Shown here: positions 25,476 through 55,100 of the stretch, piece by piece
Layout: each line of letters begins with the position of its first letter
Position numbering within the stretch: position 1 is the first letter of the stretch
Origin: Pecten maximus
Taxonomy: Eukaryota
Direction: 5' to 3'
DNA: 64,000 bases
NCBI RefSeq assembly: GCF_902652985.1
Contig: NC_047022.1
Coordinates: 30,008,001-30,072,000 of the forward strand
Notes under the pieces: generated by a model
What the model was told of the DNA's origin: nothing
Databases searched by the model: none
Seen by the model: only the letters and a program-made list of their open reading frames with translations
Position numbers and translations under genes: made by a program

Positions 25476-26681
25476 GTCTCCGTACTAGAACTAAACAATG
25501 GGACTAAAACGACCGAAATGTTGAGTAACCAGGAATGAAATGTATGAGGAAAATCAAACTCAATTAATAGTTTGACATAATACCAGGTAATAATTGCATG
25601 TTTTAATGCCATAAATATCTGATAGGAAACACATCGGCTTGTTCAAATTTGAAAAGTTTTACATATGCAAACCGATCTTTTTAACATTATTTAGTGTCAC
25701 AGCTTTGGATAAAGTAGGTATTAAACGTTAGTCCTTTGCAAGGAGCCACCTTCCATGAATCCACCCAGGCAACTCATTAATTAGCATCTTACCATCTTAA
25801 CCAAGTAAGACTTGGTATATTAACGCGATATGTTATGAATCATGAACATACTGTATAGCCGGTTATTTTCAAGGTGATGATATTTTCACTATTTCGCGGG
25901 TAAGGTAGTGGTTGTGAAAATATGATCATTGCAATTATAAGACACATATACCTGTAAATATTAACCGCTAACTTAATTACGATTAAGTTTGTCGTAATAT
26001 GATATTGCACTGTGATTAGGCTACTCGGTATGTTGTACATGTTGACCAAAGCAGTGTGTGGTCAGTTGATAGGTGGATAAATGTATACAAACAAAAAAAA
26101 AACGTGAAAACTTATTTTGGTTAGAATTTAATTGTTTCGTTTTATATTATGAAAATCGCAAAAAAAAAAAAAGATAACCGCTGTACGGTATATTACTTTC
26201 TCTCGATTGGATATAAATGTTAGCTACAATTTATCTCGGTTTTATTTTACTGTAATACAGGAGTTAAATGCTTTAACTTTTGTTAGGAAAGGCGCGTGGA
26301 CATTTGAAGTGTACAACCGTATTAATATAGAAGTAGTGATGAACCAGACACATTAAGCTATCAATGAAAGTCAAATACAAACAAATGTAATAGACTGCAT
26401 AGGAAAATGTACTTGTTCAATTGATTAATGGTGATCAAAACACTTTTACATTATTAATTACGGAAATATACAATTTCTAATAATTTATGCGAGCAAGTCA
26501 TATTTCTTCATTGATAAACGACAAACACGAGTATCCTTGGATAATTTACGTTTTATTGATGAGTAAATGATTCCAGGTAGAACGAAATTTTTTTCACAGT
26601 TTTCTGTCTTCTTCATTTTCATTGGTATCTGCAGGTGTCATAAGGTAAATGTATAGACTCTACGAATCTAGTAACTTATGC

Positions 26682-29600: not shown

Positions 29601-32600
29601 TTTGGCTGTTCAGAAAGTCATCCATTGCATGCTAGGGCTAGGGTTAGGATTAGGGTGCCTGAAACAGCTGTTTTCAGTTTTGGAAATAGATGAAAGTCTG
29701 ATGAAGCGAGATCAGGTAATAAGGCGGCTGCTCAATCAATTAAAAGCCAATCGTTAATGGCAGCCATGGCAATGATAGACTCTTTCACCCTAACCCTAAC
29801 CGATTTTGTCCATTTTGCAAAAGCCGCTTGTCTTGTTTACTTTAGAGTGCTACCTCGTCGATAAAAATAACCAAATAAGACAAGTCCATGGTACACAGCC
29901 CTATATAGTCAGAGAATAGTAGGACTTGAAAAGGAACATCCTTGAACACCTAATTCAAGGCTCACAACTTAAAATCAGCCCTTGTAGTTAACTTATGCCT
30001 AACTCACCAAGCTAATCAATCTGATTGACAAGTAGTCTGCAGATCAGTATTGTGAATTTGTAATTCCCGTCATTTCAAGAATGACTTGTGTTTTATCTCT
30101 GTTTATTGTTTTAAAGGTATCACATTAGCCGTGATAGCTCAGTTAGTTAGAACCCCGGCCACCTAATATCAAATGGAGATCCGAGGTCGGACGCTCCTTA
30201 CCGTTGTCGGCTTGTGTTTTTCGGGATGCTGCCGCGGTTGGGTCCTTTGGCCAGACCCTTGACCATAATCGCCCCGGATGGCATGCGACGGGACCCCCGT
30301 ATGTTGTTCAGTGAAGTAGTCACCAACTACTACAAGGAATCTTCTCCTTAAAATTTTCCCTAGTTGTTCACTGGTCGATAAACCTAGAAAACAAACAAAC
30401 ACATAAAAATGCATTACCTCCCTTTTGTGAGTGTGACGGCTTCATTAATCCTCTCTTTGATCTTGGTCAACATCTCCGCCGGATCCGGTAATACTCTTTA
30501 CCCAATCAGGAACCCATTCTTCTACACCCCAGAAGACGTTGTGTCCACGTAATGACAATCTGAGATCCAATTAAACAACATGATTAATATATGTGAGGAT
30601 CGGAATGAACCTAAATTGGCACCACTATTCAAGGGTTGCTTACTTCACACTCACGTTTATTTGGGTGAGGATTTCCCCGTTCAGATATCCCAAGTAACAC
30701 ACCTATAGTCCGTTTTAACCGAAACAATAGTTGTAGGTAACGTTCCTTATGTTTGCTAGGTAAAATTACAAAATATAAAGCAAATTTGATTTCATGTCTT
30801 GTTTTATGTTAATATAATTCAGATGAATACTCGTATTCGATTTGGTTTAAAATAACATTGTTAAGCTCTTGAGACCATAAGAATTTATATACATACCCGT
30901 TATCCAATAGGTCATTGATCGTTGCGTTAGCATCGTCAAACCTTAATTTACCCTGTTGGTATAATCATAAAAAAAACTCATGATATCAAAGGTGCTGATA
31001 ATACTTTGTTAATGATCATTATGTAATAAGGATTATTGACTGTATTATTGCATTATGACGGAAAAGGGGCTATGTATCGACCATATATTTATCTATAGCA
31101 ATGGAGATATAAGTTCCAAAAAATATTAATTATTTTTGGACATATTGATATTTGTGATGATGAATAATCATGATTGATGATGAAAGAGAAAAACACATTA
31201 CATGTAAGTGTTAGATAATGTATGGTGAAAGTGGGTGTCATGTCATTATTATGTATTATGTTAAAATTCTTGCAAAAATCAAATAAATATAAAAAAAAAA
31301 CAAAAAAACAATAGTTCCAAAATCAAATAAACCACACATGCTGTTACTGCTGGAAATGTACAAGGAGAAATAACGTTTTTATTATAAAGCTACCTCGGTC
31401 CATCTCATGCCTTTCCACTTGAGGGCGTTTGCCAGTACGGCCCATTCTGGTTTAAGAGTATTGTATACAAAGTCGTTGTAGAAAGAATAACTTGAATTGG
31501 TCCAAAGTTTGGCCTTTACTGCAGTACCGTGTGCGAACTCGCTACGCTTCTGCTCAACCTGAACACAAAACGACAATTCATTTTATTATTGCATCCTTTA
31601 AGACTTGCATGTAAAATGTTTGTTGTTTGCCATTAAACTATAGTTCTGGCAGGCTTAGAAAGCTTGTCTGACAATGTTAAGGGACTCGGGTCAAGCTAAC
31701 GTTTATATTCAGCCTTTTCCTCATTGCAACGTTTTCCATAAAATAGCGCTCGTTTTATTTTCAGTGCCAGAGTAGCCTCCCTCGTGTTTAATTATTGTAA
31801 GTTTTAGTAACGTATTCATTCTTACCTCTATTGTAAAAGTCTTCAATTTAATTCCTTTGACTTTTCGTACTCTTGAAACAGTAAACGAAAACATTGTCAA
31901 CAACAAAGAAACAAACAGAAGCTCCTCTCAGCAAATGTCTGTTAGAACGATCACAAAACGAATTATTAATGATAAAATTAACTACTAAACAGCGGCCTAA
32001 GTGCATCTACGGTAGTTTTAATGATACAGACATTTTCTAGTAATAACGCTTCAATCCATATAATATATCCGTGCCCAATTGCATTCATACTACTCAGACG
32101 CAATAAGCCACAATTCGAACACAGCATGATGAACATTGAAAGTCTAGTCGTTTGTGAAAACGTTGAGGTCAAGTAAATTTTAATATCTAGCAATGAATGA
32201 AAAATACATATCAAATGAATAATGACGACATGAATATTTAGTCCTAGCCTATAATCATATACATGAATGATGGATTAATTACGTCACCGAAGACAACGTG
32301 AAATTAATGACGCCATTATAGATGAGGTAAAGTCGTTTATCAATATAAAGGGTAACATTAAAACAAGATAAGATATTCAAATTCAATTCTCGATGAAATT
32401 ATTTTATTGTATCGTATTTCAACGTTGATCTGATCTTACATGATATTTAATTTGGCCTTGCGATAGAGATCAATATTGGATTCAGCCTTTGATCGCCAAT
32501 TTGGGTCCGGAACGAGTTCTACAAGGCTTCCGTCATCGAAAAAATAGTTTACATCCTTTTCCTCAATCTGAATATAAATTTTGATCTCTTTGATATCTGA

Positions 32601-35600
32601 AAATGCACAAATCAGAAAGAGCAATGCATACATATTCTGTATATTTCAAGTCGAAGTGAAAGTTTGGAATATAGAGGAAAGTTTAATACGTTTACTATTA
32701 GCCAACCCCAAAAAGAGCCAAGAAAGCAAAACATTTTAATTTAAAGAAATTGCATTCATGTTAATATAGTTGCTCCACAAGAGATTTTTATGTATCGACT
32801 TTTTGGGAGTTTGAAGTCCCCACTCACATTTTTCCCTTTATGAAATGATAGCCTACTTACTTTCCGGGAGTTTGAAGTACCCGCCCACATTATACCCTTT
32901 ATGAAATGATAGCCTACTTACTTTCCGGGAGTTTGAAGTCTCCGCCTACCTCCTGCCATGATCCCGGTCGAAGACGAGGATGAATAGCAATGTTGGAGTA
33001 TTTCTTAGTCCCTGCGAGAAGTGTTAATTAAAGTAGCTTAAATATAGTCTATGAATTCTTTAAAATATATACGTAAGTATCTTAATGTACAGATTTCTGT
33101 GTGTAGATTTTGCTTTCTACAGTACTATTACCAGAACATGTATGTGATTTGTTCACCTACCATCACGTGATGTAATCGTTAGGTCACCTATAAAAAAATT
33201 ATGAAATTGATACACTTGTCATCACTAACGTTAGTTATATAGTGTTGTATGTTTATGATTGGTTCATCTATCGTCACGTGCTATGATACGGATTTGTAAA
33301 ATTTCAGAACATGAACATTAGAATCAATAAATAAATGAATAAATAAATAATTATGATAGTAAAGAATATTCAAAAAAAAACAATCAAACAAACATTCTTA
33401 TAAATACATCGTATACGAAGTGCTGATGTATCATAACAAATGATCGGAACCTACCGTCGAGTGTTTCTGTCCTAAGCTTCACAATCACGTCATGATACAA
33501 GTGGCCAGCCGCTAAGTTTTGTAACTTGATGTAACCAACAAAAGCGTACATTTTACCGGAAGTGACATCGGGTGAACCAATCAAATAACCAAGTCCTGCC
33601 CAATTAGCTGATCTGAAGGCAAAAGAAAGACAAAATAAGAAGCAGCTAAGTTCGATAGAACAAACATTCATTTCAGCATAATTATACAACAAATTACCTT
33701 AAAGATTTTGATGTATGAGAATTGAGATCGAGTGTACACTTTCGTATAAAAATCAGACATTTTCCATGGTGACTGTATGAGCTTCCAAAACCTGTGTTTT
33801 CATTCGTTTTTACTTGATTACTGCGTCAGCTTCCATCAATATTACTTAACTTAAGAAGGATCCTTATCTTACAGTTTTCCATAGCAATGCATTACAGAAC
33901 CTAACAAAGATCCTTAAGCAAGAATGTTTCCTTTAAACCAATGATGATTCTGTATAGAACGAGCAACGGTAAAGAAACATGGCCCTGGCATGTTTTATTA
34001 GCAGCTCTATAGATAAATTTATTCAGTATCTTATATTCATAGCACAAAAATAATACAAAGAAATTACTGGAAATTAAGTTACTAATATATGCACGATCGT
34101 ATCATTGCAACCTATCTAAACTTCATATACACAATACATTTTATAACACAAAATGTAGTAATATAGGATTTTACCCGTAATAATACAATATTTGCTATTT
34201 ACATGAAGGTTTTCTTGGCATTTGCTTCGTTTAAAAGCAGGTAAGAACTTAAAGGTGCTACACCTCCAACAGATAGTATTTATTATCAATTAAAAACACG
34301 AATAGTCTCGTATGTATTTTTTATTCAGCAATGAAAGTTACACACATTATTACCACCCTCGGAAAGTTTCTTCTTCTTATTTATCTTTAAAATTCAAAAA
34401 ATATAAATAATTAATTGCGTCCCGAAGAAATTCCACTTCGCTCCGCCTCCATATTGAATGAAATACTGATTGCACATGCGCCGAAAACAAACACAAACGA
34501 GCAGGAACCAAATGGCGAAGCGAGGAAGGCAACATGTGCTAGCCTAACATCTCCTATAAAGAAGGAAGCATAAATTAAAGCAAGTGAAGGATTTCAATCG
34601 CAGACTGCACAGACAGGTGGGATTATAAACGAGAATGGAATCGGAACACATGCGGAAATGACACAGTTGAGTTTTTGTCGGAGAGGCAAGTGTGTAACGT
34701 ACACACGTACGTAGTTGAACGTTCGGTCTGTTGTCATCTTTACTAAAAACCGTAAGCATATGATGCGATTGAATCAATGGCTAAGATTCTTTTGTAATAT
34801 GTAGTGATTGCAGATTCACTATTATAATACTTACCAGGTTAAACCTGTTGATACATCACACGTGTATCAAACCAACGAAATGGGGCCGAAGGGGGTAACG
34901 CTAAGAAAGCGTTTCGGTTCGTGGGCGGCAACATGCTGCAGAGGATCGTGATTTTTCGCAACGGATATTATTGAAATGTTTATTTAATTTTTATTTTCTG
35001 TTTGCATCCAAACCTCAGCATTTAAAATTTGTAGTTATGATAGGCGACATGCAATGTATAGTTGCCCCAGCCCAGTGAATCTAAAACAATAAGTCCATCA
35101 CATTTGTTTTCTTCTGTATGTAAATCTCTCCCAGAATGCACTGAGATCAAGATCAAGTGTATGCAAAGTAGATTATAATGTTTAAAAGTTCGTAACTTCT
35201 TGGCTTCATTACGACAATATTTGACGTTATAAAATAGTTTTTTTATTTGTAGGTCTCTAAAAGGTATACATATCTGGACTAAATATCATTTATTGTTAAA
35301 ATAATAACAATCTATTACATTCTGTCGGAGGTGTAGCATCTTTAAATGTTAGGAAACGTATACATATAGAAACGTGATCTGTTCATTCGTAGACATCCAC
35401 CTGTACTATTGTCCAATTACTATTGCTCGCTATGGTACCAAATACACATACGCAAGAATGGTGTGTACATGTATATCAATTAACATGAGTTACCATTCAT
35501 TTGTTCAGTAGTAATGTTCTGGACCGATACATTTAACGTGCCAACGGAGGAGGTGTTAAATCAGAATCTATGATCTCATTCTGTATTTGTTGCCTGTCTG

Positions 35601-35876
35601 GTTTTTATATCGATACTTTTCTATTCCATTAAGATGTGTTCGTGTATTCAATTATAACATATTGATATTACGTAGTACATTGTACCTCCCTGTGATGTGG
35701 ACACTCTGCGCCCCGCCATGTTTCTCCGTGGTACTGATGGTCCAGGAACATCCCGATTTACTCCAGTAGGTCCCTAGGGTAACATCCTCTAGGTCTCCAT
35801 TCCCTAGTATGTTAGTCCCAGCCGCGCCCAGGACGAAGGTCCCCAACAGGAGGAGGAAGGCAGGTAAAGACGCCAT
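26682..35876 (-). CDS. Secreted GH10 endo-1,4-beta-xylanase-like protein, paralog B (13 exons; one +1 indel in exon 8 as sequenced)
   Basis: Exons 35876-35686, 33612-33455, 33011-32922, 32596-32440, 31871-31826, 31558-31394, 30952-30897, 30559-30418, 29134-28963, 28601-28494, 27781-27563, 27396-27192, 26719-26682. Signal peptide MASLPAFLLLLGTFVLGAAG; CBM4_9-like NILGNGDLE...YFFDDGSL; GH10 motifs NALKW, RGHNVFW, WDVNNE (acid/base), LFLNDF, GVGVQSH, IWVTE (nucleophile), WGFW. AATAAA at ~26555. Exon 8 is 142 nt vs 141 nt in both paralogs. Confidence 0.9.
29449..29984 (-). mobile_element. Internally deleted mariner (DD34D) element with TIRs and TA TSD in xylanase B intron 8
   Basis: TA|cgagggatgattgatcagttgtgag ... 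ctcacaacttaaaatcagcccttg|TA. Minus-strand remnants MDKIG, IAMAA, PDLASSDFHLFPKLK and KSGIEALKHHW...TEGDYVEK*. Confidence 0.88.
30126..30335 (+). mobile_element. tRNA-headed SINE-like element
   Basis: Begins gccgtgatagctcagttagttaga (tRNA D-arm/A-box-like), has a GC-rich body and a short (cta)n tail. Not a complete tRNA. Confidence 0.5.
32795..32945 (-). repeat. 61-bp tandem triplication of the exon 3 end + splice donor in xylanase B
   Basis: ACTTCAAACTCCC(G/A)(G/A)AAA|GT recurs at 32922, 32861 and 32800; the first two copies share GTAAGTAGGCTATCATTTCATAAAGGG. Confidence 0.9.
34253..35341. mobile_element. Non-autonomous Kolobok-like DNA transposon in xylanase B intron 1
   Basis: TTAA on both sides; TIRs aggtgctacacctccaacaga / tctgtcggaggtgtagcatct; no ORF. 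Confidence 0.8.
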
Positions 35877-35981: not shown

Positions 35982-38900
35982 CACTGATAATTGTAAACTC
36001 TGTTATAGGTCATTCTTACAATAATGGATACACACATAATAAATACATTTGACCTCGGGGGCAAAGTAAAATAAATTGGCATATATCTTAGTACCATTAA
36101 GATAATGTACGTCATAAGAATCATGCGTGTCGCCCAGCACAATACAGCATTGCAACAAATCCGTAGTTTGTGTAAGCAATTCCTGAAAATATTTTCATTT
36201 TATACTCTATAACCAACATAAAAACTAGAATTAAAAGACGGACAGTACTCAAACGGACCAACTAAAAGCACGTCTAAATATAAAATGCTGAATAAATTAT
36301 CAATAAAACTGTAACAAGGTTGGTTAATCATACTGGACTATAATCAAACCATATTATCAAGTGAATTCGGCATATTTTGAGAGTTGAATAATAAGATCTC
36401 ACAAGAACTTAGAAGGGCAGTATAGTATTTCCACCATTAAAAAATTTCACCGAGAATAATCCTATCTTAAGGGCAGCTTGGCCGCGTGGTTAAATATAGG
36501 CTTACTTTAAAGTTACACGTATACTGACTAACATGAGTGTTTCTAAGGTAGACGGAGCAATGCGAACGATGTACCATTCTGATGTAATTTATTTTGGATT
36601 TGAACTGCCTATACTAATTTTAATATACATAGTGTCTGTACAATTGTCCGGATAATCGAAATGACATATTACTGAAGATTTGTCTGATTTTGTATTAAAA
36701 AAGCATTTCAGAAGGCAGCACCGGAATGCTTTCCAGATTTTTTCAGAGCTATATATGTATTTCGACATATTTAATACATCATATAGAAGTTCATCAGTTA
36801 CTGTGTCTCTACATTACACACATTGTGTGGTATCATCACCCTTTCCATCTCTATGAATACCTTTCCCTCTTTTGATCTGATAGTCATGTATTGTGTATGT
36901 TTCTTTTTTATCCTCACTATAATTAGTGCAAAGCAATTTTTATGCGATAGAAACTCACGCCAACCAGACTTAATCACACAGAGAACACACACTTATTGTG
37001 AACAGTAATTTGCGATTGTTAATAAAGACAAAGTGGCGATCTTACCACAGCAGTCGTACATGTGAAAGCGCTGACCGGGTATTGTTTAATGCAAACAAAA
37101 TCTAAAGCTCTTTTTAAACACATTTCGTCCATTTGGAGTTGTATTGAAACTATTCATCTTTCGTGAATTATTATTTTAACTTGTTACAAAAACGATAAAC
37201 ACTTTTCAGATACCCGTATCAATCATTAAACACATTTCATGAATCATAACGATAAAGGTAAATCAGACAAATCACTACACTATGGTATTTTCTAATTGCC
37301 CCTGTATGTTGTCACAAAATCACTATGCTAATGTTATTATATTTGCGAGCAACTATTCTGCCCTTTTTTCCCATTATGCAGGCCACCAGGTATAGAAACT
37401 GAGATTAAAACCATAATCGGTCTTATCAGACTTAATCAAAAGTATGGGTACCATTCAATCTCGATACATTTATGAATGATACCGAAGAACAAAGTCAGAA
37501 CTCGTATAATTTAGATTTATAACATTAACTTTTGTTGTATTACCGATGTTACTTATATGTTATCTGTCCGAATACAAGAATATCTCAGGTTCCATCAAAT
37601 TTATTTAATAACGCTACATGTAGACATGTGTTCGGTACAATAATGGCGATATTCTGGGTGTGCAGACAAAATCTCATTACAGTGTGGAATTAGTTTTAAA
37701 AGGGTAAGGCGGCCTAGCATACATATCGCGTTATATATGTATATATAAGTAATTCAGTGTAAGAACCAGCTGAGCAAATAAATCGCATACTACACTATCC
37801 CACAGAAAAGAAAATTGTTCGGGAGACCCATAATTCACAAATAAATAAATGAATAAATTTGATATTCTTAATAGATTTAATAATGTTCAATACTGGATTT
37901 AAAAAGAACATGATGGATATATGCATATTATGAATCGTGATAGTATTCGAACTTTATCATACATTTGGATTGTCAGTATCATCTAAGATGAATAAGAAAT
38001 TTGAAGACATGAGCAGTAATAATGCATACACACCGACTTCAGATTTGTATTGTTTGTCGATTTTAGTACAATATAACCACCTTTGCTGCTTTGCAGTATT
38101 TAAAGTGAATATCATTTGAAGTTATTGATAATTATTATGTCAATGCAGGTAAAAGTAAAATTCTTACATCTTTAATAAATTACTATTTCAGCAACAATTC
38201 TATGCTAGGTTGTTGTTTGTTTTACATATAATGTATTGAATGACATCGGCAAACAAGTGACAGGCCACGCCAGGCTTACTTATATATGACACACGAGACA
38301 TAAATATCAGTGATCACACCAGTAAGTAGTGCAATTATACATCTACAACAAAATGTCTCTGTCTGCAGATTATATACAAAATGTCGACGTTGAAAGCAGC
38401 CATGTATATAAGTTACATTAAGTATAACATAAATTCGTTGATGAGTATGTAGATGTTCTGTTTGTTCTCGCAATTGTAGTCGATTGTTAACATTTGCGTT
38501 AGTTTTTAGCCCATCATCTGATGATTGTTGGCTTTTCAAGCAAAAATCAGCCAAAAAGAATCCCTCTTGCATCTGATGTTATTTCCCTAAACTTCCTTTT
38601 GAAGTTCCAATATTTTCGTCCCTAGATAAATAATCTCTAGTCCTCAAAAAACGAAAAACACATTAAAAAGAAGGTTTATATTCATTATTCAAAATATAGC
38701 TAATGTATTACTAAATTTACAAAAGCTCCTACTCACTTGTGTTTTACTGTTATGTATTTAAAAAAACGCATTACTCTAAAACATAACGTACTGATTATAT
38801 CAAATGTATTAGTTTTTATGTCACTATGTACTTGTCACCATGAAGTGATAATGTCCCAATACTAACATTCGATGACTTAATGAATTGATGTAGTGATATT

Positions 38901-39180
38901 GACGTAAGAACATTTTGTTATCTCCTTTTTATATTAGCAATGCAAAACAAATGAATCCATAGTCAGCGTAAGTCTGTTTTAAAAACATTTCGTCCATTTT
39001 GAGTAGTATTGAAACTATTCATCTTTCGTGAATTATTATTTTAACTTGTTACAAAAGATATAAACACTTTTCAGATACCCGTATCAATCATTAAACACAT
39101 TTCATGAATCATAACGATCACTAAACTATGGTATGTTCTAATTGCCTCTGTATGTTGTCACACAATGACTATGATAATGT

Positions 39181-42100
39181 GGGAGCCTGAAGTTGGTTCC
39201 GAGTTCCGAGTTCCGAGATGATGCTGACAATTCAAAGGTATGATAAAGTTCGAATACCAGCACGATTGAGAAAATGCATATATCCTTCATGTTCCTTTTT
39301 AAATCTAGTATAGGACATTATTAAATCTATCAAAAATATCAAATTTATTCATTTATTTATTTGTGAATTATGGGTCTCCCGGACAATTTTCTTTTGATAT
39401 ATTTTGAGTTTTGATTTTGATCGATTCCTATCAACACTTTATTCCCTGTCATTGTCGAGTCATTGATGGAGGAAACAGTGGTATAGTGCAGTATGTGATT
39501 TATTTAACACTGAATTACTTATATATACATATATAACGCGATATGTATGATAGGCCGCCTTACCCTTTTAAAACTAATTCCATACTGAAATGAGATTTTG
39601 TCTGCATACCCAGAATATCGCCATTATTGTACCGAACACAGGTCTACATGTAGCGTTATTAAAAATAAATTTGATGGAACCTGAGATATTCTTGTATTCG
39701 GACAGATAATATATAAGTAAAATCGGTAATACAACAAAAGTTAATGTTAAAAATCTAAATTTTACAAATTCCGAGTATGTTCGTCGGTATCATTCATGAA
39801 ATCGTAATTGAACGATACCAATGGCATTGATTAGGTCTGATAACACCGATTATGTTTTTAAATTTCAGTTTCTATATCTGGTGGTCTGCATAATGGGGAA
39901 AATGGGCAGAATGGGTGCTCGCAAATGTATTAATATTATCAGGGAGCTCGAGTTCCTAGTTCCGAGTTCCGAGTTCCGAGTTCCGTTTAAGTAAAACGAA
40001 ACTACAATGTAATAGCTTTACGGGTTTTGGTCCCAGTTCCGAGTTCCGTTTGAGAAAAACTGAAATACTATGTATCAGCTTTATTAGTTTTGATCCCAGT
40101 TCCGAGTTCCGTTGAAGAAAAACGAACTACTATGTATAAACTTTGCGGGACTTGGTCCAAGTTCCAAGTTCCGTTTAAGAAAAACAGAATTACTTTGTAT
40201 AAGCTTTACGTGTTTTGGTCCCAGTTCCATTTAAGTTAAACGGTACTAGGAACCAGTTTTACGGGACTTGGTCCTAGTTTTCAGTTCCGTGTAAGAAAAC
40301 CGAAACTAGGAACCAGTTCCGAGTTCCGTTTAAGAGTTCCGTTGAAGAAAATATTCTATGTACTTTCTTTCAATATGAGATAAGAATCTGAAGAAGAAAA
40401 ACTGTATGTGTCAATGGGTTCAAAGTCAGTTATCAGTCACGTATACATTTTACAGGACTTGGTCCTAGTTTTCAGTTCAGTGTAAGAAAACCGAAACTAG
40501 GAACCAGTTCCGAGTTTCGTTTAAGATAAACACGAGTGGTGTTGTAAAGTTACGATAAATTAGTGTGTTGTAACCTCTAAGAAAGAATATTTCAACGCAG
40601 TTTTCTTTCATGGTACATTTCTTTATGTTTCCACTTTCGTAAATGAAAGTAGCTTGTAAACACAGCTTTCTAGATATCGCGAAATGTGAGTCCATGGAGG
40701 GAGATATGAGGTTTTATTTGTAGTTGATGTATCAATATATGTGAAATTAAAGTACACAAAAAAAGCAATAACTGCAAAGTATATTTCATACACCATTTTG
40801 TTTTTTAATATGGCTTCTACTGTTGAGGTGAAATGTCTATATGACGACTGGGAAAACATCTTTAACTGGTATTACTGAAGTTTTATTCAACACAAATATA
40901 AAAATTACAATTTCATTGAATAATATTGAACAGTTGTTTCATTGGCATTTGGAAACATAGAAATACGCGGGGTAGCAGGAAACTTCTAAGGAGCTGTTGC
41001 CAAAGGCTTTACTTGTTATTCGCTGTCAATGATCAGACTAAATGATTAGATTATATCTACAATTTGTGATATCACTAATTCGAATTGATGGTATCATTAA
41101 ATGATATAACGATATCATTTAATGAATAAATTATATCAACAATTCGTATTGATATCACTTTATTCCTTGAATTAATGATATTGCTTTGTTTCCCGCGAGG
41201 CGGGGGAATCTTTTGATTGTATTTGAGTTTTGTAAGTCAGAGCTCACATGATCTGCTACTGAAAATATTAAATTTATTCATACGTTTGTTTCCGTGCGAT
41301 AACTTATATTCTTGTTAACAAATCGTCTCCATATTTGGTACAGAGGTTCCCTGAGAGGAGGGGATGTGCAGGCTTGTTTTTGAGGTCCACAGGTCAAAGG
41401 TTACATGATCTGTTACTAATTTCTTTTTCATTTTCTTTCTTACAGACCAATTTTTAGACATCCTTAGTCTTACAGATACTATATGAGGAGTGAGGACGCA
41501 TAGACTTGCATTTTAATTCCGTAGGTCAAAGGTCTTGTTTTATGTTACTTTTATTATTATTTTCATTTTTTCCGCCTGAATCCTGTCCGATACATTTCAT
41601 GAAATCCGTCAGTGGGAATCCCGATGAAACTTTGTAGGAATATTATTTGGCAAGTGTAGATGTGCCTTTTGGCATTCGTCTTTTTCGATCCCCCTACCAA
41701 TATGGCCGCCTTGGCATCTGAGTGGTCGAAAAATTGGTATGTAAGAATTTTGAGGGAACAAAAACGAAAACCTTTTACTGCGCGTCCTCCAACCCGACAT
41801 GGCCGTCGTACGATCTGACTGGCCAACATTTTAACACGGTCTAATTTAGATGGCATTTCGTGTGAGTTGTATTAAAAGACTGACTTTAACCGCAACATTT
41901 CTGTCTGGCGTTTTGTGAACTTTCCGTAACAACTCCCGTTCCAAATAGACCTTGTTCAATTATTTATATCATGAATTCGAACTAATGATCGACATTAACT
42001 CGATTCATTCATAACGCTTATTCAATTAATCAGATAATATCCTTAATGCGAATACTTCGAGATAATAACAATTTGAACATGTGAATTTCTAGATCATCCC

Positions 42101-44260
42101 GGTATTATCCCGCGACCATCAGATCAGTCATAGGGACTTTGATAATAACATTAATTAACGCGAGGATCAACATCATGTTACAGAGGAATTAATGATATCA
42201 CACATTAAAATTAGTAATATCACTAAATGCCCAAAATTCTTGATATCATGAATTCAAATTAAATTTATCACTTATAGTATTGCGATATAATGATATCAAT
42301 ATATTGATGAATGAGTCAATATTGTGTTTGTGATCGAAGCACCCAACTGCTGATAGTTTGATCAGCATTATTTCATAACTGTTGCAAGGCCTCGACTAAT
42401 TACAAGACATTATCTTTGTTTTTAGAATAGAACAGTAAAATGTTGTTACCATGTTTTACAACTTTATCATTTTGCATTTGAAATGAGCATTAAACTGGTC
42501 TATTAAGTCCAATTAAGATTCCGACCCAGTGGTAGACTTAACAGCGCTTTGTACAGTTTCACAATTGATCTTAAGATTTCCTCAATCTTCAGGAGGGCAA
42601 ATGGACACAGCAGACATGTGAATAGAATGTTAAAGAATTGAATTTGAATTGATACCTAAGTTTTGAAGCATTGCTGTTAATTGAATCGGTTTTAAGGAGA
42701 ATTGCTAAACGTTGCCTTCTTTAAGTTAGACACATTTGATCAGATTCGTTGTGTAGCCGGGCTCTGTTTCAAAGTCAGTCAAATATATTTGTCTTGAAGC
42801 ATATTCTTATGCATGTAATTAGGAAGTTGTCAATTAATATGTCTGATGTAGGTAATTGTCTCTGGTACTCCGGTCCCTTCCACGACTCAAACTGGTTCCT
42901 TGTTCTGTATAACTTAAACGGAAATGGAATTGGATGCTATTTTAATACAGCTAAAACGGAACTCAGAACTACAAACAATATTTTCCTAAACGAACTTATT
43001 CTAATCCAGACTAGGGGTTCATATTTAGGTGACGTACATGCAACATTTACTTAAACATAACTGGGAACTTTATCCTAATCCCTTAAAGCTTTAAACGGAA
43101 CAGGGAACTATATCCAGTTCGTAAATGGACCTCGGAACTGGTTCATAGATAGAATATTTTAAATGGAACTCAGAACTGGTTCCTAATTCCGTTTATCTTA
43201 AACGGAACTCGGAACTGGGACCAAAACCCATAAATCTCCCTCATAGTAGTTCCATTTTTCTTAAACGGAACTCGGAACTGGTTCCTAGTTCCGGTTATCT
43301 GAAACGGTACAAGGATCAAAACCTGCAAAGCTTATACATAGTTGTTCCGTTTTTCTTTAACGGAACTCGGAACTGGGAGCAAAACCCGTAAATCTGCTAC
43401 ATAGTAGTTCCGTTTTCTTAAACGGAACTGGTTCCAGTTCCGTTTTAGATTAAAAGGAACTCGGAACTGGTTTCTAGTTTCATTTATTTTAAACGGAAGT
43501 GGGAACAAGTGCCAAGTCCCGTAAAGTTTATACCTGACTGATAAGTGTCCTTACTCTCATTGACATATCATTTTCTTTGTCAGATTCGGGTCTTATATTG
43601 AGATAAAGTACGTAGAACATTTCTCTTTATGAAATTTGGAAACTAATTCCTAGTTCTGTTTTTCTTAAACGGAACTCGGAACAGGTTCCTAGTTCCGTTT
43701 ATGATAAACGGATTTCGGAACTGGTTCCTATTTCCGTTTATGATAAACAGAACTCGGAACCAGTTATCTTCAACGGAACTCGGAACTGGGACCAAAATCC
43801 GCAAAGCTAATACATTGTAGTTCCGTTTTACTTAAAACGGAACTCGGAACTGACTCCTAGTTATCTTAAACGGAACTCGGAACTGGTTCATAGTTCCGTT
43901 TTACTTAAACGGAATTCGGAACTGGTTTCTAGTTTCATTTATTTTAAACGGAACTGGGATCAAGGACACAAGTCTCGTACAGTTTATACCTGACTGATAA
44001 ATGTCCTTATACTCATTGACATATCGTTTCTTTTTCAGATTCGGGTCTTATATTGAGATAAAGTACGTAGATTATTTTCTTTATGGAATTTGGAAACTAA
44101 TTCCTAGTTCCGTTTTTTCTAAATTGGAACTCGGAACTGGTTCCTACTTCTGTTTATATTTAACGGAACTCGGAACTGGGACCAAGCCCCGTCAAGTTTA
44201 TACATAATAGTTCGTTTTTCTTAAACGGAACTCGGAACTCGGAACCAACATCAAGCTCCC
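39181..44260. mobile_element. Foldback-type (Mutator-like) non-autonomous DNA transposon with long modular TIRs and a 9-bp TSD
   Basis: Ends gggagcctgaagttggttccgagttccgagttccg / cggaactcggaactcggaaccaacatcaagctccc. TSD tgataatgt (39172-39180) / tgataatgc (44261-44269); the empty site tgataatgc is present in unit 3. Arms are built from GAGTTCC/GGAACTC modules (39940-40530 and 42880-44260). Confidence 0.88.
41030..42330. mobile_element. Nested degenerate repeats in the foldback core (GATATC/AATTCGAATT-rich element interrupted by Helentron-type fragments at ~41185-41900)
   Basis: GATATC-rich tracts at 41050-41180 and 41960-42310 flank segments with aggtcaaagg, gaaactttgtagg and aatatggccgcc motifs typical of HINE-like elements. 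Confidence 0.5.
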
Positions 44261-47200
44261 TGATAATGCTATTACATTTGCGAGCACCCTTTCTGCCCAT
44301 GTTCCCTATTATGCAGACCACCATGGCCAGATATAGAAACTGAAATTTAAAACATAATCGGTAAATCAGACCTAATCAATGTCCATTGGTATCGTTCAAT
44401 TACGATTTCATGAATGATACTGACGAACATACTCGGAATTTGTAAATTTACATTTATAACATTAACGTTTTTTGTATTACTGATTTTACTTATATATTAT
44501 CTGTCCGAATACAAGAATATCTCAGGTTCCATCAAATTTACTTAATAACGCTACATGTAGACCTGTGTTCGGTACAATAATGGCGATATTCTGGGTATGC
44601 AGACAAAATCTCATTTCAGTATGGAATTAGTTTTAAAAGGGTAAGGCGGCCTAGCATACATATCGCGTTATATATGTATATATAAGTAATTCAGTGTTAG
44701 ATACAGCTGAGCCAGTAAATCACATACTGCACTATACCACTGTTTCCTCCTTCAATGACTCGACAATGACAGGGAATAAAGTGTTGACAGGAATCGACCA
44801 AAATCAAAACTCAAAATACATCAAAAGAAATTTGTTCGGGAGACCCATAATTCACAAATAAATAAGTAAATAAACTTTATATTTTCAATAGATTTATTAA
44901 TGTCCTATACAAGATTTAAAAAGAACATGAAGGATATATGCATATTCTGAATCGTGCTATTATACGAACTTTATCATACAAGAAATTTGAAGACATGAAC
45001 AGTAATAATGCATACACACCGACTTAAGATTTGTATTGTTTATTGATTTTATTACAATTAACACCACCTTTACTTGCTTTGCATTGTTTAAGGTGGATAT
45101 CATTTGAAGTTATTGATAATTATTATGTCAATGCAGGTAAAGGTAAAATTCTTACATCTTTAATAAATTACTATTTCAGCAACAATTCTATGCTAGGTTG
45201 CTATTTGTTTTACATATAATGTATTGAATGACATCGGCAAACAAGTTGCAGACTACGCCATACTTACTTATATATGACAGATCACACCAGTAAGTAGTGT
45301 AATTTTACATCTACAACAAAATATCTCTGACTGCAGATTATATACAAAATGTCTACGTTGAAAGCAACCATGTATATAAGTTACAATATGTATAACATAA
45401 ATTCGTTGATAAATATGTAGATGCTCTGTTCTTTCTAGCAACAGTAGTAGAATGTTGGCTTTTCAAGCAAAAATCAGCCAAAAAGAATCCCTCCTGGACC
45501 TGATGTTATTTCCCTCAACTACCTTTTGAAGTTCCAATATTTTTGTCCCTAGATAAATAATCTCTAGTCCTCAAAAAACAAAAAAACACATTAAAACAGC
45601 AGGTTTACATTCATTATTCAAAATATAGCTAATGTATTACTAAATTTACAATGAGAGCCCCTCCCCACTTGCGTTTTAAACAAAACCCATTACTCTAAAA
45701 CATAACTTACTGATTATATCAAATGTATTAGTTTTTATGTCACTATGTACTTGTCACCATGAAGTGATAATGTCCTAATACTAACACTCGATGACTTAAT
45801 GAATTGATGTAGTGATATTGACGTGAGAACATTGTGTTATCTCCTTTTTATATTAGCAATGCAAACCAAATCAATCCATAGTCAGCGTAAGTCTGTTTAA
45901 AACACATTTCGTCCATTTGGAGTAGTATTTAACCTATTTTCATGAATTATTATTTTAACAGTTACAAAAGTGATAAACACTTTTCAGATACCCGTATCAG
46001 TCATCAAACACATTTCATGAATCATAATGATAAGGGTAAATCAGACAAATCACTACACTATGGTATTTTCTAATTGTCTCTGTATGTTGTCACACAATGA
46101 CTATGATAATGCTATTACATTTGCGAGCACCCATTTTGCCCATTTTCCCCCTTATGCAGACCACCAGATATAGAAACTGAAATTTAAAACATAATCGGTG
46201 TTATCAGACCTAATCAAAGGCATGGGTACCATTCAATCTCGATTCATTTATGAATGATACCGAAGAACAAAGTCAGAATTTGTAAAATTTAGATTTTTAA
46301 CGTTAACTTTCGTTGTATTACCGATGTTACTTATATGTTATCTGTCCGAATACAAGAATATCTCAGGTTCCATCAAATTTATTTAATAATACTATCATGT
46401 AGACCTGTGTGCGGTACAATAATGGCGATATTCTGGGTATGCAGACAAAATCTCATTCCAGTATGGAAATAGTTTTAAAAGGATAGGGCGGCCTAGCATA
46501 CATATCGCGTTATATATGTATATATAAGTAATTCAGTGTTAGATACAGCTGAGCCAATAAATCACATACTGCACTATACCACTGTTTCCTCCTTCAATGA
46601 CTCGACAATGACAGGGAATAAAGTGTTGATAGGAGTCAACCAAAATCAAAACTCAAAATACATCAAAAGAAAATTGTTCGGGAGACCCATAATTCATAAA
46701 TAAATAAATGAATACATTTGATATTCTTAATATATTTAATAATGTCCAATACTGGATTTAAAAAGAACATAAATTGTTATATGCATATTCTGAATCGTGC
46801 TAGTATTCGAACTTTATCCTACATTTGAATTGTCAGTATCATCTAATATGAATAAGAAATTTGAAGACATGAGCAATAATAATGCATGCACACCGACATA
46901 AGATTTGTATTGTTTATTGATTTTTTTTACAATTAACACCACCTTTGCTTGCTTTGCATTGTTTAAGGTGGATATCATTTGAAGTTATTGATAATTATTA
47001 TGTCAATGCAGGTAAAGGTAAAATTCTTACATCTTTAATAAATTACTATTTCAGCAACAAATCTATGCTAGGTTGTTGTTTGTTTTACATATAATGTATT
47101 GAATGACATCGGCAAACAAGTTGCAGACTACGCCATACTTACTTATATATGACAGATCACACCAGTAAGTAGTGTAATTTTACATCTACAACAAAATATC

Positions 47201-48987
47201 TGACTGCAGATTATATACAAAATGTCTACGTTGAAAGCAGCCATGTACATGTATATAGGTTACACTATGAATAACATAAATTCGTTTATATGTATGTAGA
47301 TGCTCTGTTCTTTCTAGCGACAGTAGTAGAATGTTGGCTTTTCAAGCAAAAATCAGCCAAAAAGAATCCCTCCTGGACCTGATGTTATTTCCCTCAACTA
47401 CCTTTTGAAGTTCCAATATTTTCGTCCCTAGATAAATAATCTCTAGTCCTCAAAAAACGAAAAACACATTAAAACAGCAGGTTTACATTCATTATGCAAA
47501 ATATAGCTAATGTATTACTAATGGAAGCTCCTCCCCACTTGTGTTTTACTGTTATGTATTTAAAAAAAAACCTCATTACTCTAAAACATAACTTACTGAT
47601 TATATCAAATGTATAAGTTTTATGTCACTATGTACTTTTCACCATGAAGTGATAATTGATATGTCCTGATATTGACACTCGATGACTTAATGTTGATGTA
47701 CTGATATTGACGTAAGAAAAGTTTGCTGTCTCATTTTTTATATTAGCAATGCAAACCAAATCAATCCATAGTCAGCGTAAGGTAAACACTGTGTCCCAGG
47801 AAAACTCCTAAAAGAGAGGCAAATAATTCATGAATGAAAAGACTGCACTGTATCCCCGAATACATATAATCCAAAATGTAGGGAAGATACCACATTGGAT
47901 GTTTCTGATATACACAACGTAGCGTCATTGTCACTCTTAAAAAATGATCGACAGTGTCTAGAATGTAACTGTGAAGGAATATAATACTCATATATATGAT
48001 ATTAAGTTCGAAATACACAAATAATACATGATGAGCTGAATGAGCAAGAACAAAACACACTAGTTGTACAACAAAGTCATGGAGATAGGAAAATTGGTAA
48101 AGGGACTAACATTATCCTGACAAAAATCTTGAAACAAATAGTTTCCTTGAAGACGAATTCGTCCAATAGTGTTTCCTATAATATTTCAACGTATTTCTTG
48201 TCCGGACGAGATGTCTTCACTAGCATGCAGTGCTTTCAGAACTTTGATCTATATGAAGATTTATGGGGGGTTGACTAATAGAAGTTGCGAAAACGAGACA
48301 AAATTCGATAGTAATCGGGGTTTGAATTAGACAAAATGCCGTTTAAACGTGCATTCAACTTTATGAGAAATATCATTTTTTATGTTTGATGTCAAATTTC
48401 ACAGAAACTAACGAAAAGATTCATACAATCGATATCCGATTACGTTGACCGATATATAAATGTAATTTTAGTACAATTTTCCTTACAAACAAATAGCATT
48501 TTGACCTTATAAATACTTGATAAAGTGTGCTTGTGAGTATTTACGACTTTGGTACAAAATGGCCTCGTTCTGGCATGTCCGGAACGGAACAAGTTTTTCA
48601 TATGTACTATCAGGTACCCCATGGATATGTCTATCCGGGCATTAGGTAAAGGATCGATTTCCTTCATGGGCGGTTTTAGAGCATTCCTGCAACAGCACCT
48701 TTGCATCTGATTTAATACAATATCATCTATATCTAGAGTATACTTGTAATTCTCTTAGTTTCGAGCGAAGCATGGTGACGATACACGAGATCAGCGATAT
48801 CCCCTGTAGCAGCTAATTACTTTATTATGGGATTATAGTCTAGAAATTAACATGAAAAATGTATTCTTTTATAAAGTTTCTTTGAAGTCAAAAAATGTTG
48901 CTTGTTTAGCCTCAAGGCTAAATTACCAGTTACTTCAGCATTCACAATATAAGATTATCACCTGAGATTTTCTTTACATCAATATTT

Positions 48988-49126: not shown

Positions 49127-52100
49127 ATGACGCCATTACTTTTTCGTCTCCTCCTGTTGGGGACTTTATTGCTGAGGGTAGCTGGGACTAACTTGCTAGG
49201 GAATGGTGACCTAGAGGCGGCTAGCCTAGGGCCCTACTTGAGTACATCTGAATGCTCTGTGGCAATTAGTACCACGGAGAAACATGGTGGAGCGCAGAGT
49301 GTCCACATCACCGGAAGGTAAAATTAGTTTCATCATCGTTTTTCGTTTTCTTCGCCTTCTTTTCTTTGCTATGGTACTTAGAATATTCATATTTATAGCG
49401 AGTACTACTTCATGTTTAAATTAGTGTCATACGTGTTATTTTTTATTAGCATTGTGTATTGTAATGTTGTGAGAGGCCTTTGGTGAAATAAAAGTCAATC
49501 AAATGTGTTTGAATATATAGCAAAATAATATGTGTTATATAAGTTTTCTTGCGTCAATTAACACCTATTGTTTTCTACCGGTCCGGCCTCCCAAAGTTAA
49601 TGTTGCCGCCTTTCCAGTAAATAATCCCTTTGATTTACTTCGGCTGTAATAAGTCGTGAGGTGTCGCTAGTCTTTTCTCAGTATCTGTATTTCCTTGTAT
49701 TTCACGATAAATTGTTGACTTGTAGTATTTAAGGTGTTCACGCAGTTGTACTAATATTCCTTGTCATCCTCAATTTTCAAATTTCTTCTTTGTTGTTTTG
49801 TTTCATTTCCGTTACTTGATTTTGTTAAGAAAAAATATGTTACTATTCACAAATGAAATATTAAAATATTTACAAGAAAATCTTATCACGCCTAGTGCCA
49901 TAATTTGTTCGCCAGGTAAGTTTAACACCTGGCATGGTGTTTACGTCACCATAATCATGTTTGCGGATGTCACCGAAACGCCTTGTGGCATTAATCGTAC
50001 TGCTGGGTTTTGAACAGGAAACAGATTGATAGAGATGAGAGTGATTTAATCTGGTGTTTATATAACAGCGATCAGTCACTAGTCTGGATATTGTTATGAT
50101 ATATAAGCCTGCCAAGTGCTACTGTTGTTAACAAAAGTGAATTGCTAACTATTGGGCTTAATTTGAATTGAACAAATTATTTTTTATACGAGGCTGATGT
50201 GAATTGCGTCGGGTATTTCACTTTTTGCTGAGGGTCCGCTTTTGATGGAATTTCTAAAAGTGGTTTCTAACGAATACAGTATATGGTTGGTAACCTTTAT
50301 CATTCATATCTTTAAGGTTACAGTCTAATATACTAAAACATCCTATAATGTTTAAGAAGTTGTCAGTATATATAAAGAATCATGCTAGATCTCTGCCAGA
50401 TACTTAAATGCTTTTTTCCACTGCAAACGTCGATTGATACAAGAATTATGATAGCTTCCTGACGTACCTAGTACACTTGTACTATTGATCATTTTGGCAA
50501 CACGGATACAATCACAGGTAGAACAAATGAAATGAAATATGTATAAACAATACGCTCCAAAAAGGGAAACTTATACTTTATTTGCAACGCAACAATACAA
50601 ACATGCACTAGCACTTAACGAATGCTGGTCCTAGGTTTGTATAAATAACATATAAAAACATATGTATTGTAATAAAAGATGAAGAAATAAATATAATGAT
50701 AAATAAAACGGGGAAAAAAACCCAAGAATGTTATTTGGTGAGATCCTAAAGCGATATGCTGAGATTATAAAAACCAAATATTTAGGTATGAGTATGTATT
50801 TCAAAAGGTAAGCCTTGTATTTGTACCAAATTTAAACTAATATTCACATATACTAATATTAATAGTTGCTATCTTAACCAGGCCTAAGCAAGAAAAAGAA
50901 AAGAAAATTAGAATGAATTGTTTATTTATTGTACAATATAAATCACACACACTGACAATTACGCCGATAACAGTGTCTAATAACGATCGGGTATCAGAAA
51001 GTAACATACTAAAGACAGAGACATAATTCGACACAGTTTCTTGTCACACCTTTTGTTAACACCAAGCTGTGGTTTGATTGGACATATATTTCCATTGTTT
51101 TGATCGTAACGTATAATGTTCTTGGCGCAATGTGATGCCGTTACCAACGAAAAAAACTGTATTTCAAATGTTAGTACTATAAAATGATATTCTTTTACTG
51201 TATGGAACACATTATAAGCAAAATCTTACTTTCGCTTTCATTTTATATGGACTTTATTAAACTCAATGAGAAGTTTTCATTTCTCCTCAGCCAGTTTCTT
51301 GAGCAAATGAAATGTTACTCCTAGACTCTGTTCATCAAGTCATCATTGAGTAATTATATTATATTCCATTCTGACAGGACTGCGAAATGGGCCGGCCTTG
51401 GATATAAACTTGGCCTCAGTAATGGCATAGCTTCAGGAAAAATATATGCATTTTCGGGATACCTGAAATTGGAGAATCTGGCTCAAGGATTCTCTTACCA
51501 TAATGTAACAACGACCGTCAAACAAACATTCAATGATAGTAAGTATGCATCCGAAATGGACAGTTCGTAAATTTGGAATCTATATTCAATTTCTACCTAG
51601 TAATTATATCATTACCTCACTACACACCATCACTCTATCACAGCATTTGGTAATGCGTATCTTTACTTACAGACAGCCAGAAGTTCGAAATGCTGAGTTT
51701 GCAGCCTCTTGTCCGAACGGGATCCTGGATAGAGATAGGAGGCGACTTCAAACTTCTAGTGGTAAGATTACAGTCAATTAATCATATATTTATTGATTAA
51801 GATATCTATGAATAAGTAGTGTTAATACATATTAACTTTCTGCTTATATTCACAAGTAAAACATTTATAATGATTAAAATCCTCGATTTTCTAACAAACG
51901 GGTGGCGGCATCAATGATATAAGAAATGTTATACACAGAAAAAGATAAGTCGAAAACACCAAAGAAACATTAAAAATGGGCCAAAAACGATAAAAGCAAT
52001 GTCAAAAAGAATGATCAGTATCTTTAAACTTTTTTATCTGATAATGTTTAATTAACATCAAAGAAAATCATTGTAGAAGGTTTTTATAAGTTTGATATAA

Positions 52101-55100
52101 TAAAGAAATTATGTGGAGATGATTCGCAAGTTTGTTAAAAGTTTTCCAATATTGAAATTATGCTATTTTTTTCATTTTATTTTTTTATTATTATTTTCAT
52201 TTTTTTTTCAGATATCAAGGAGATCAGGATTTACATACAGATACAGCAACCGGAAGTCAACTACTTCTTTGATGACGGAAGCCTTGTAGAACTCCTTCCT
52301 GATCCTAACTGGCGGGCTACCGCGGAGGAAAACATTGACGCCAATCGGAAGGCTTCACTAGAAATTATGTGAGTTTGAAGATTGATGTCTATTTTAACTC
52401 AAAATCGATCGCAAAAATAACGGATAGTAGAAACGGAACCTAATCGTTAATTTTGCCAAACCTGTTATAAACATTCCTGCTTCAAAGTTCTTTTCAATTG
52501 CATCCATAGACAATTACCTCAAACCTGCCTGGAATGATCCTGAGATCGTCTTGAATATGTATTGTTATTTTGCGGGTCGGGCTCAAATTCAAGATGGTCG
52601 TCATCTTGAAAAATACATTTTAAATTCCCCCAATTTCACTAGTGCCATTGAGCTAAAACCTAGTGAGGATGCTTAGGAAAGAAAGCGTGCAAAGTTTTTT
52701 GTTGTTGTTGTTGCTGCTATTTTACGTCAAAATTTCACAATTGCGGCAACGCCGGTTATTTTGTAATGTAATGCAGAATCACTTTTCCCTGAATAATACC
52801 TGTTTTGAGCTTCTCAATCGCTACTATTAGGATATAGCCCTAACTCATCTAAAGTGATCCTTGGATGGTCTTGACCAAATATTTTTATATTGGGATCGGT
52901 TTGGAATCTAATATAGTCACTATGGTCATCATCTTTAAAAACAACACAATTTAAGCTTCTTCTCCCGTTACACCAGTGGGATTTAGTTAAAACTTACAGA
53001 AATGATCCTAGGTAGTACTCACAAACTATTACTAAACTGTGCTGTTACATAATCGTTTGTTTAAGAATTTGAATATGTGTTGGTATGCAATACTGGGATC
53101 ATTTATGTTAATTGCGCAAGTCCAATTAGTTACATTAAGCTGACTGACTTATAGATATGTCACTGTCTGAAGGCAAAGTGTTGAATTATATGATAATTAG
53201 GTAAACTGTGTGCATGATGTGGACATTCAATTTTGATAACAGAGGTGTTAATATATAACCTGTGGGTGTCAAATAAGTTAACGAAAAAACTTATGAGTAT
53301 GAATGGGACACTCCATTATGATAGATGCACCTTACCTATAGGTGTCCAGTATGTTAACACCTGCACACCGAGCAGTCCAATATTAAGAGGGCTATGTCAA
53401 AGTATGTTATAAGCCTCTTCACGTCCAATATGTCAGCCTAACGGCCTCCAAACGTTCTTTCTACCAACATATTGAACTTCTATCAGTTAATCTATAGTTA
53501 ATTTTCAAACTGGTCCAAAATCCGACATGGATACTTCTGTCGCCATTTTGTTATACAATACGCAATTTCCGAGTTAGTCTCCCCTTGCGAGCTCATTGTG
53601 AAAAAGAGATAAAATAGGCTTTCAATTTGCTGCTAAGTAGGACCAATATATATACACACCGTTAATACATTATGCAAGGATCAGTGGAAGTAAAATATTA
53701 GCTTGATGCGTTTCAGACTTGCGTAGCATATCTCAAATTTACTTGAAATATAAGTACAGACATCTTGTATACAGAGAACTAAACAATATGAAATTATCGA
53801 TGATTAACAGTTTATCTTGAAAACCCGTTACACACAACAATATTAAAAAATAAATAATGGGTAAATATTGTGATTTTTTAATACAGTGTACATATAGGGT
53901 CACTCCAGCTAATGTATAGGAACAACGTTGGGACGGGACTCGTACAAAATGACGAGAGCAATTTGACAAATCTTGCTCGAAGCCAGTCACGACTTCGTCT
54001 GATCAGCGATCTACGAATATTGATATTTTTCCTGCTTGACAACTGGAGAATTTTATACTTCCATCCATAGATATTTGGCGAATTCATTATTTTTCCCCGT
54101 GCGCATTGCAGCCGGGCACACAACTGAAATGCGCCAACAGCATAACCGCAAAGAAACAACAACTAGCCTACCGATTCTAGTCGTACCACCCATGTTGGAG
54201 CACTGCCTCCACCAATAAAAGATGGCTACATGTCCGGGATGATACCTCCCGCGGAAAGTGGAAATTAGAACTCGGAAATGGCGTATTGAACAATCATAGT
54301 CTTCGCAAAATATGCACATTATAAACTACTTTTTGATTCTATCAATTAGATACAATAACTACTAGGTATGAACCCAAGGTAGTAAAATCACCATTCCTTG
54401 TTATTTGTTTGGCAAAACATACACCACAATTATTCTCAATACCTTACTGCTGGTGATGATGTATATTCCGTACACTCGCATTAGGGCCTTATAGTCTGAT
54501 GGACGTATGCTATATATGTAACTTCTCAGCGAGCGGAGCGCTTTTGAACGTGCAATGTTTCTGTAGAATGCATAATGTGACCGATCATTTGATCTTACTA
54601 TCATGTTAAAAGAACAGCACCTTTAATTATGACATCACCTCATTTGGTTCTAATTTTCCAAATGTTAGACAATATAGCATGAAAACGGGAAAAGAGCATT
54701 AATAAATAGAAAACATTGGTTTATAATTTTTTTGGAAAAATTCATAAACATGCTCTTCATCTACAAATATAATGCTATATATTTCAGATCTCTTACGGAA
54801 CCTGGCATTTCTCTCAGTGGAATCGACATAGAGGTATGCTTAACAAAACCTTTCTGTTTATGTGTCTGAGGGGTACTTATCATATAGCTGTTGACCTATT
54901 ATAAAAAAAAACATCAATTGGTATATTATATATGCAGGTGTTATATATAAAGTATACAATAACATACAATTTAATAATAAATGAATAGATATATTAAGTA
55001 TACTGTAAACACGTTCCTACGACAATACACTGTTATTCAACTATCGGACCATTGTGTAGACATGCTGACAGTTGAATAAATATATCGATATACAACTAAT

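Follow-up and report, generated by a model that had tools for sequence, protein, structure and literature searches.

The stretch analysed here, which we call the window, is 64,000 nucleotides of the Pecten maximus genome (C8:30008001-30072000, in a genome of 918 Mb). Between two divergently oriented paralogous genes, its non-coding DNA holds a local tandem repeat and, inserted in the second unit of that repeat, an element of 5,080 bp at positions 39181-44260: a non-autonomous, non-coding DNA transposon of the foldback type. The left arm of this element contains an inverted copy of the element's own right end and of the host DNA that lies beyond it.

The host repeat is made of three tandem units of about 1.87 kb each, 6.5-8.5% apart. 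Unit 2, with the element in it, spans 38977-45895, and the empty insertion site is visible in unit 3 at position 46104. In a genome search with a 720-bp query from the host unit, long matches were confined to this locus. The features of the region, with position in the window and strand, are:

37112..38976 (+): first unit of the host repeat, non-coding and about 1.87 kb long, confined to this locus
38977..39171 (+): part of host unit 2 that precedes the insertion point
39172..39180 (+): left target-site duplication, TGATAATGT
39181..39217 (+): outer left tip, formed by the 20-bp family tip and 2.4 GAGTTCC heptamers; it matches the most frequent tip of the family exactly
39218..39941 (-): 724 bp of right flank copied in inverted orientation; its last bases (39933-39941) repeat the target duplication a third time
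39942..39948 (+): right-tip bases GGGAGCT, 7 bp with the right tip's rare T at position 7
39949..40530 (+): remaining left arm, with five heptamers, then 62-bp and 39-bp subterminal repeats; motif GAGTTCCGTTTAAG eight times
40530..43100 (no strand): interior, non-coding, common to other family copies
43100..44260 (-): right arm and right tip, with 14 subterminal motifs; the tip departs by two changes from the most frequent one of the family
44261..44269 (+): right target-site duplication, TGATAATGC
44261..44979 (+): template of the inverted copy, in the right flank
44980..47781 (+): remainder of host unit 2 (to 45895) and host unit 3 (45896-47781)

As an earlier note on this DNA had described, the element is bounded by GGGAGC, from 39181, and GCTCCC, up to 44260, and has a 9-bp target-site duplication, here with one mismatch; a duplication of 8 bp does not fit the site. 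The two arms, 0.6-1.1 kb long, both bear repeats of 7, 39 and 62 bp, and form long terminal inverted repeats (TIRs) with tandem subterminal repeats. The interior is 84-93% identical to other family copies along long stretches and contains no open reading frame longer than 104 amino acids; none of 12 short reading frames of element and insert scored above the Pfam cut-off, and this copy holds no coding relic. The family was followed by a 23-bp tip that occurs exactly 291 times in the genome, and 0 times in the control. At 181 other loci we read 306 tips, 233 of them exact and a few maybe counted twice; this set excludes 12 smaller loci that are duplicates of larger loci, as well as the majority of the first 42 short loci. 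Family members carry the same tip at both ends, and at 69 independent sites (at most one mismatch) the target duplication is 9 bp long in 55 and 8 bp long in 14.

The inverted copy begins 37 bp inside the left tip. The 731 bp at 39218-39948 are the reverse complement of the element's own right end and flank: they contain 7 bp of the right tip, then the target duplication and, past it, some 715 bp more of the right flank, nearly to the base what the earlier note had seen, which ended the segment at 39947. The host-derived part starts exactly at the right target duplication. Counted with the right tip (44254-44979), the parent agrees with the insert at 94.8% of aligned bases, or 91% with gaps, and the self-BLAST pairs 39238-40067 with 44979-44145 at 89%. 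After the 7 bp of right tip, the sequence enters the heptamer repeats of the left arm, which beyond these heptamers is not copied from the right arm. There are 2.4 heptamers on the outer side of the insert and 5 on its inner side; other tips have 0-4, and once 6 (n = 306). At the outer junction, the last two bases of the outer tip (AG) form a 2-bp microhomology with the template. Neither junction is a new insertion site: there is no new duplication, and the outer junction lies 37 bp inside the tip. Next to no element sequence was lost at the insert, and the element is complete when compared to its relatives.

The inner junction and the right tip have in common a T at tip position 7 that is found in only 4 of the 306 other tips, or 4 of 73 if the tips chosen by exact match are set aside. 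In a first set of loci compared, the inner tip form was seen only here. Taking it for a true second type of end, in an element with natively asymmetric ends, was rejected, both ends of family members having one and the same tip.

Three host units resemble the insert, and it groups with the adjoining flank, unit 2, as the earlier note had claimed. Over the 724 bp, substitutions amount to 5.2% against the adjoining flank, 7.2% against unit 3 and 9.4% against unit 1. The informative sites are distributed 18:1:1 in favour of the adjoining flank over units 3 and 1 (P=2e-7 against one third), and 6:1:1 without a dense block of diagnostic positions. Raw BLAST identity is about the same for unit 3 (90%) and for unit 2 (89-91%), because unit 2 is rich in private changes (21 substitutions, versus 8 in the insert) and in indels. 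Two details bear on the order of events. The ninth base of the duplication is a T at the left and in the insert, and a C at the right, which would be in line with copying before the right side changed to C. A stretch of 31 bp has also been deleted from the flank at 44979/44980, straddling the far end of the copied tract. The insert does keep part of this missing stretch, as the earlier note said, though about 21 bp of it rather than 30. Deletions private to unit 2 cover 71 of about 1,900 bp, which gives a rough chance of 4% for one of them to overlap the far breakpoint; the deletion may thus be a scar of the copying event.

Mis-assembly of palindromes can occur, and a fold-back read could in principle have produced the inverted segment. 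Five public runs from three studies contain part of the stretch; four of them (X1-X4) were compared, as Logan contigs. The outer junction is spanned by an X1 contig (39187-39303) that has 31 bases on the tip side and 1 difference; for the inner junction (39864-39978) there are contigs of X2 and X3, which come from one sample, with 0 differences. The two junctions derive from different studies, and one sample could be the source of the assembly. Among the pieces listed for X4 neither junction appears, no contig runs across the whole stretch, and 39251-39328 is without cover in X2-X4, which proves nothing. Another X1 contig, 272 bases long, agrees with 39680-39948 apart from 6 differences, and the 3 letters that follow tip base seven are unmatched: it could represent either an allele in which more of the tip was copied or an allele of the right junction. 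Contig joints that skip the insert were discarded, their sides of 20-29 letters coming from other family copies. Moreover, 36 substitutions and 9 indel events separate the insert from the flank, and the host unit is confined to this locus. The earlier note had held that finding the same 720 bp in other copies would make it native sequence of the element; the insert is private to this copy among the family members examined. The observation is real, and the chance that the insert is either an assembly artefact or native element sequence is negligible.

Probably, then, the insert was made after the element had landed, by a double template switch during replication or repair that owed nothing to transposase. 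Synthesis would have stalled or broken within the left arm's tract of GAGTTCC heptamers and been primed anew on their counterparts in the right arm, the arms being inverted repeats that may have been paired; copying would have run outward through the right tip and some 724 bp of flank, and would have returned to the left arm at the 2-bp microhomology. No transposase would be needed. In this reconstruction the heptamers would stem from three of the left arm and two of the right arm with a short overlap, which fits the counts of 2.4 and 5, and a loss of 12 tip bases is assumed.

Support for a double switch comes from the insert, which starts to the base with the right target duplication and carries the rare T, and from the informative sites that designate the adjoining flank. 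On the plus strand the junction points follow each other as 1-4-3-2, which mirrors 3-2-1-4. In the four-point scheme of Loytynoja and Goldman 2017 (PMC5453318), these are the forms in which two switches create an inverted repeat, and the mirror forms are indistinguishable. Single-copy Pack-TIRs, TIR elements that hold a piece of captured DNA, have a median microhomology of 2 bp, little element loss, and parents mostly less than 15 kb away (Tan et al. 2021, PMC8277862). Since the left arm, past its heptamers, does not copy the right arm, the switch from arm to arm was confined to the heptamer and tip zone, and the lack of a new target site argues against a transposition step. The earlier note proposed an intramolecular template switch between the TIRs: a switch between the two ends is the most economical account, but its intramolecular nature is not separable from an inter-strand switch. 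The authors of PMC5453318 favour inter-strand over fold-back switches in their short events; here the two cannot be told apart.

Several points count against a double switch in the arms. The copied right tip is just 7 bp long, when an in-register switch between arms predicts the whole 20-bp tip, so that either the later loss of 12 bp or a sloppier switch must be assumed. The 2-bp microhomology is within chance. The excess of private substitutions in the flank over those in the insert (P=0.024) is not explained by a simple clock. The intermediate allele, an element without the insert, is not visible among the short contigs, which break in the repeated tip. Finally, a breakpoint near the tip is tied by Tan et al. 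to repair triggered by excision, and not to internal breaks (PMC8277862).

This last point leads to an unlikely alternative in which excision opened a gap that was repaired off the sister: 37 bp of left tip would have been copied, followed by a jump to the inverted right flank, a return through the right tip, and completion of the element. The breakpoint 37 bp from the tip agrees with it, the family was active, as its young copies attest, a synaptic complex would keep both ends together, and transposition-dependent gap filling has been described for P elements (PMC8277862). However, abortive gap repair should delete much of the element (PMC8277862), and the element here is as complete as its relatives. 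Sequence alone does not distinguish the two triggers. Less likely again is a succession of rearrangements, where unequal crossing-over duplicated unit 2 together with the element, the stretch between a point 37 bp inside the tip and a point 724 bp into the flank was inverted, and recombination between arms collapsed two elements into one. The locus is indeed a tandem array, prone to changes in copy number, and another family copy, L220, shows a tandem duplication of end and flank, its three right ends being spaced by 1,683 bp and bordered by one and the same target duplication; but three events are required, and the left arm should have been partly copied from the right arm, of which there is no trace beyond the heptamers.

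Alternative transposition, in which sister-chromatid or hybrid-end transposition with re-replication leads to a composite insertion, yields inverted duplications beside transposon ends in maize. At this locus it is very improbable, and largely refuted, because all the ends share one target site and no new one arose: the duplication that flanks the inner tip is that of the outer ends, down to the base, and the outer junction does not coincide with a tip. The post-insertion double switch remains the preferred account.

Compared over a 500-bp stretch of the interior, 25 of 46 other copies are within 2% of the family majority, the younger ones being 0.4-2% from it, and the copy studied here is 7.2% off. 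Together with the 5.2% divergence between insert and flank, this indicates that the capture probably predates the last burst of the family, a coarse dating given allelic variation, and that the family probably kept transposing afterwards. The locus is an old, single-copy Pack-TIR, and movement of the enlarged element was not seen. The earlier note's suggestion that host DNA could be mobilised in this way is not borne out, the enlarged element being single although many family copies are younger; nor is its suggestion of TIR growth, since the mirror arm is outside the element and no tip-like sequence is present at 44900-45200. The insert itself is likely to handicap mobility: subterminal motifs number 0 in the left arm on the outer side of the insert, 8 on its inner side and 14 in the right arm, and in Muta1, a type-2 foldback Mutator-like element (MULE) of Aedes, fewer subterminal repeats lower excision (PMC5499845).

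How often such captures occur was surveyed in 122 other tip-to-tip elements, 83 of them with a verified duplication; in most cases 1-1.5 kb of flank was covered at one side or both (L075 and L185 had less), and parents farther away would be missed. The inverted, tip-straddling form was found in 0 of these 122 copies. Private interior segments of at least 80 bp are present in 12, and one of these, in L187:1547-6459 (C8:33671746-33676658), matches the element's own flank: an 841-bp direct copy, 96.8% identical, of flank located 320 bp beyond the right tip lies inside the left arm, with a 3-bp microhomology by eye. The first 427 bp of this filler were found in just those two places, and a MITE-like segment (miniature inverted-repeat transposable element) of about 1 kb follows it. 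L187 is a classic single-copy Pack-TIR, and local capture of filler thus occurs in this family. L141:258-2524 (C6 near 41.706 Mb) was rejected as a second inverted flank copy, being just 78% identical and without a second tip: there, a truncated end of the family lies within an inverted repeat of about 0.7 kb that is probably older and part of the host DNA, as a foldback or a local inverted duplication. The inverted flanks of L083 and L143 are located outside those elements and were not retained as captures.

Other members of the family show further arrangements. Miniature tip-to-tip copies of 74-190 bp (for example L115, L194, L221, L251, L252 and L253) have perfect or near-perfect target duplications: either tips and a few repeats sufficed for movement, or arms collapse after insertion. 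On many chromosomes a larger repeated unit with 60-bp tandem repeats holds one or two family copies at the same sites and with the same target duplications (L043, L197, L199, L207, L209, L233, L240, L249, and also L050, L055, L114 and L235), from which it follows that another mobile element spreads them. In L220:4784-8520 (C16 near 6.89 Mb), a short family copy has its right end and flank tandemly triplicated, with a 1,683-bp period and the same target duplication each time.

The superfamily of the element is not established, since no transposase with these ends was found in the MULE-domain and Merlin-domain regions examined. The earlier note assigned it to Mutator or foldback elements: the 8- or 9-bp duplications, long TIRs and tandem subterminal repeats are consistent with membership. 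The genome has 82 matches to the MULE transposase domain PF10551; the surroundings of 19 of them were examined, and none is enclosed by family tips, one unrelated 1.1-kb family copy lying about 4 kb from a match. Duplications of 8-9 bp also characterise the Merlin / IS1016 superfamily. All 9 matches to its domain PF12762, with up to 5 kb on each side, lack a family tip. No autonomous partner was seen among the longest verified family copies either: the 8.8-kb L185 is long owing to expanded arms and a nested repeat, and a weak tblastn match in L134, considered as transposase, is actually a scrap of reverse transcriptase from a long interspersed nuclear element (LINE).

The rest of the window can be described briefly. 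Three paralogous multi-exon genes are clustered around the element, at 16479-35855 (-) and 49148-59488 (+), with a weak, xylanase-like match to glycoside hydrolase family 10; single exons of the flanking paralogs are below the curated cut-off. An exon of an MRM3-like rRNA methyltransferase is found at 2911-3258 (-) (PF22435, E 1e-8), and a decayed LINE-type reverse transcriptase fragment at 61057-62355 (PF00078, E 5e-10). Arrays of a 145-bp repeat at 12237-13625 and 63299-64000 are two related copies, probably carried by a dispersed element.

The locus is a well-resolved case of a DNA transposon acquiring adjacent host DNA without moving, in which one can read where both switches took place, which allele was the template and in what order things happened. 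It demonstrates no new function, captured gene, mobilisation or TIR growth, and the form is rare in its family (0/122); its value is that of a mechanistic case, and of a prompt for searches of Pack transposable elements (Pack-TEs) without a filter on flanking TEs. It is tempting, if rather doubtful, to see in it a more general route, by which paired foldback arms let repair synthesis exit through the opposite terminus into host DNA, the locus being the frozen first half of a two-step path to host-derived TIRs. If that were true, a second copying event could place a left tip at the distal limit of the right flank and make the TIRs about 0.75 kb longer, of host origin, and end-straddling captures would be systematically missed by Pack-TE pipelines that discard TE-adjacent parents. 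A literature search whose scope left out most subscription journals and the supplementary case table of PMC8277862 returned no paper on filler that straddles the element's own terminus.

Among known systems, Muta1 resembles the family in its 8- or 9-bp target duplications, its GGG start, and its terminal motif followed by tandem subterminal repeats; unlike Muta1, the family here is without a linked transposase, and its arms are longer (0.6-1.1 kb) and modular (PMC5499845). The closest kin of the insert are the Pack-TIRs. A non-TE insert within the range of 100-5,000 bp lies inside one TIR element that keeps both termini, and has an unambiguous nearby cis parent at about 90% or better; the captured sequence is confined to this locus, which sets it apart from the mobilised captures of multicopy Pack-TIRs and Pack-MULEs. 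As in the single-copy animal Pack-TIRs described in PMC8277862, more than 100 bp of filler came from nearby cis DNA (<5 kb), with a short microhomology that here is within chance, little of the element was lost, and the capture, present in a single copy, took place after insertion. Unlike them, the filler is inverted and crosses the element's own opposite tip and target duplication, so that a 0.73-kb palindrome straddles the element boundary. The pipeline of Tan et al. 2021, as described in PMC8277862, discarded cases with a TE within 100 bp of the parental copy; here the parent abuts the element and includes its own right tip, and that filter would have removed this form. This geometry, copying across the element's own end, was excluded by design from the published animal survey (PMC8277862).

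The insert also resembles the four-point template-switch mutations of Loytynoja and Goldman 2017, where the way the switch points are ordered gives an inverted repeat and one event accounts for both junctions; those events are short and local, whereas 731 bp were copied here from 4.3-5.8 kb away, with the inverted arms as the likely guide (PMC5453318). Finally, in the TIR extension of Galileo (Marzo et al. 2013, PMC3573991), one arm is likewise repaired off the other by a tract that runs past the TIR and leaves a new inverted repeat. Galileo recruits internal sequence, so that new inverted sequence comes to lie inside both ends and the TIRs lengthen; in the element described here the tract ran outward into host DNA, the second arm is beyond the right tip, and the TIRs are unchanged.

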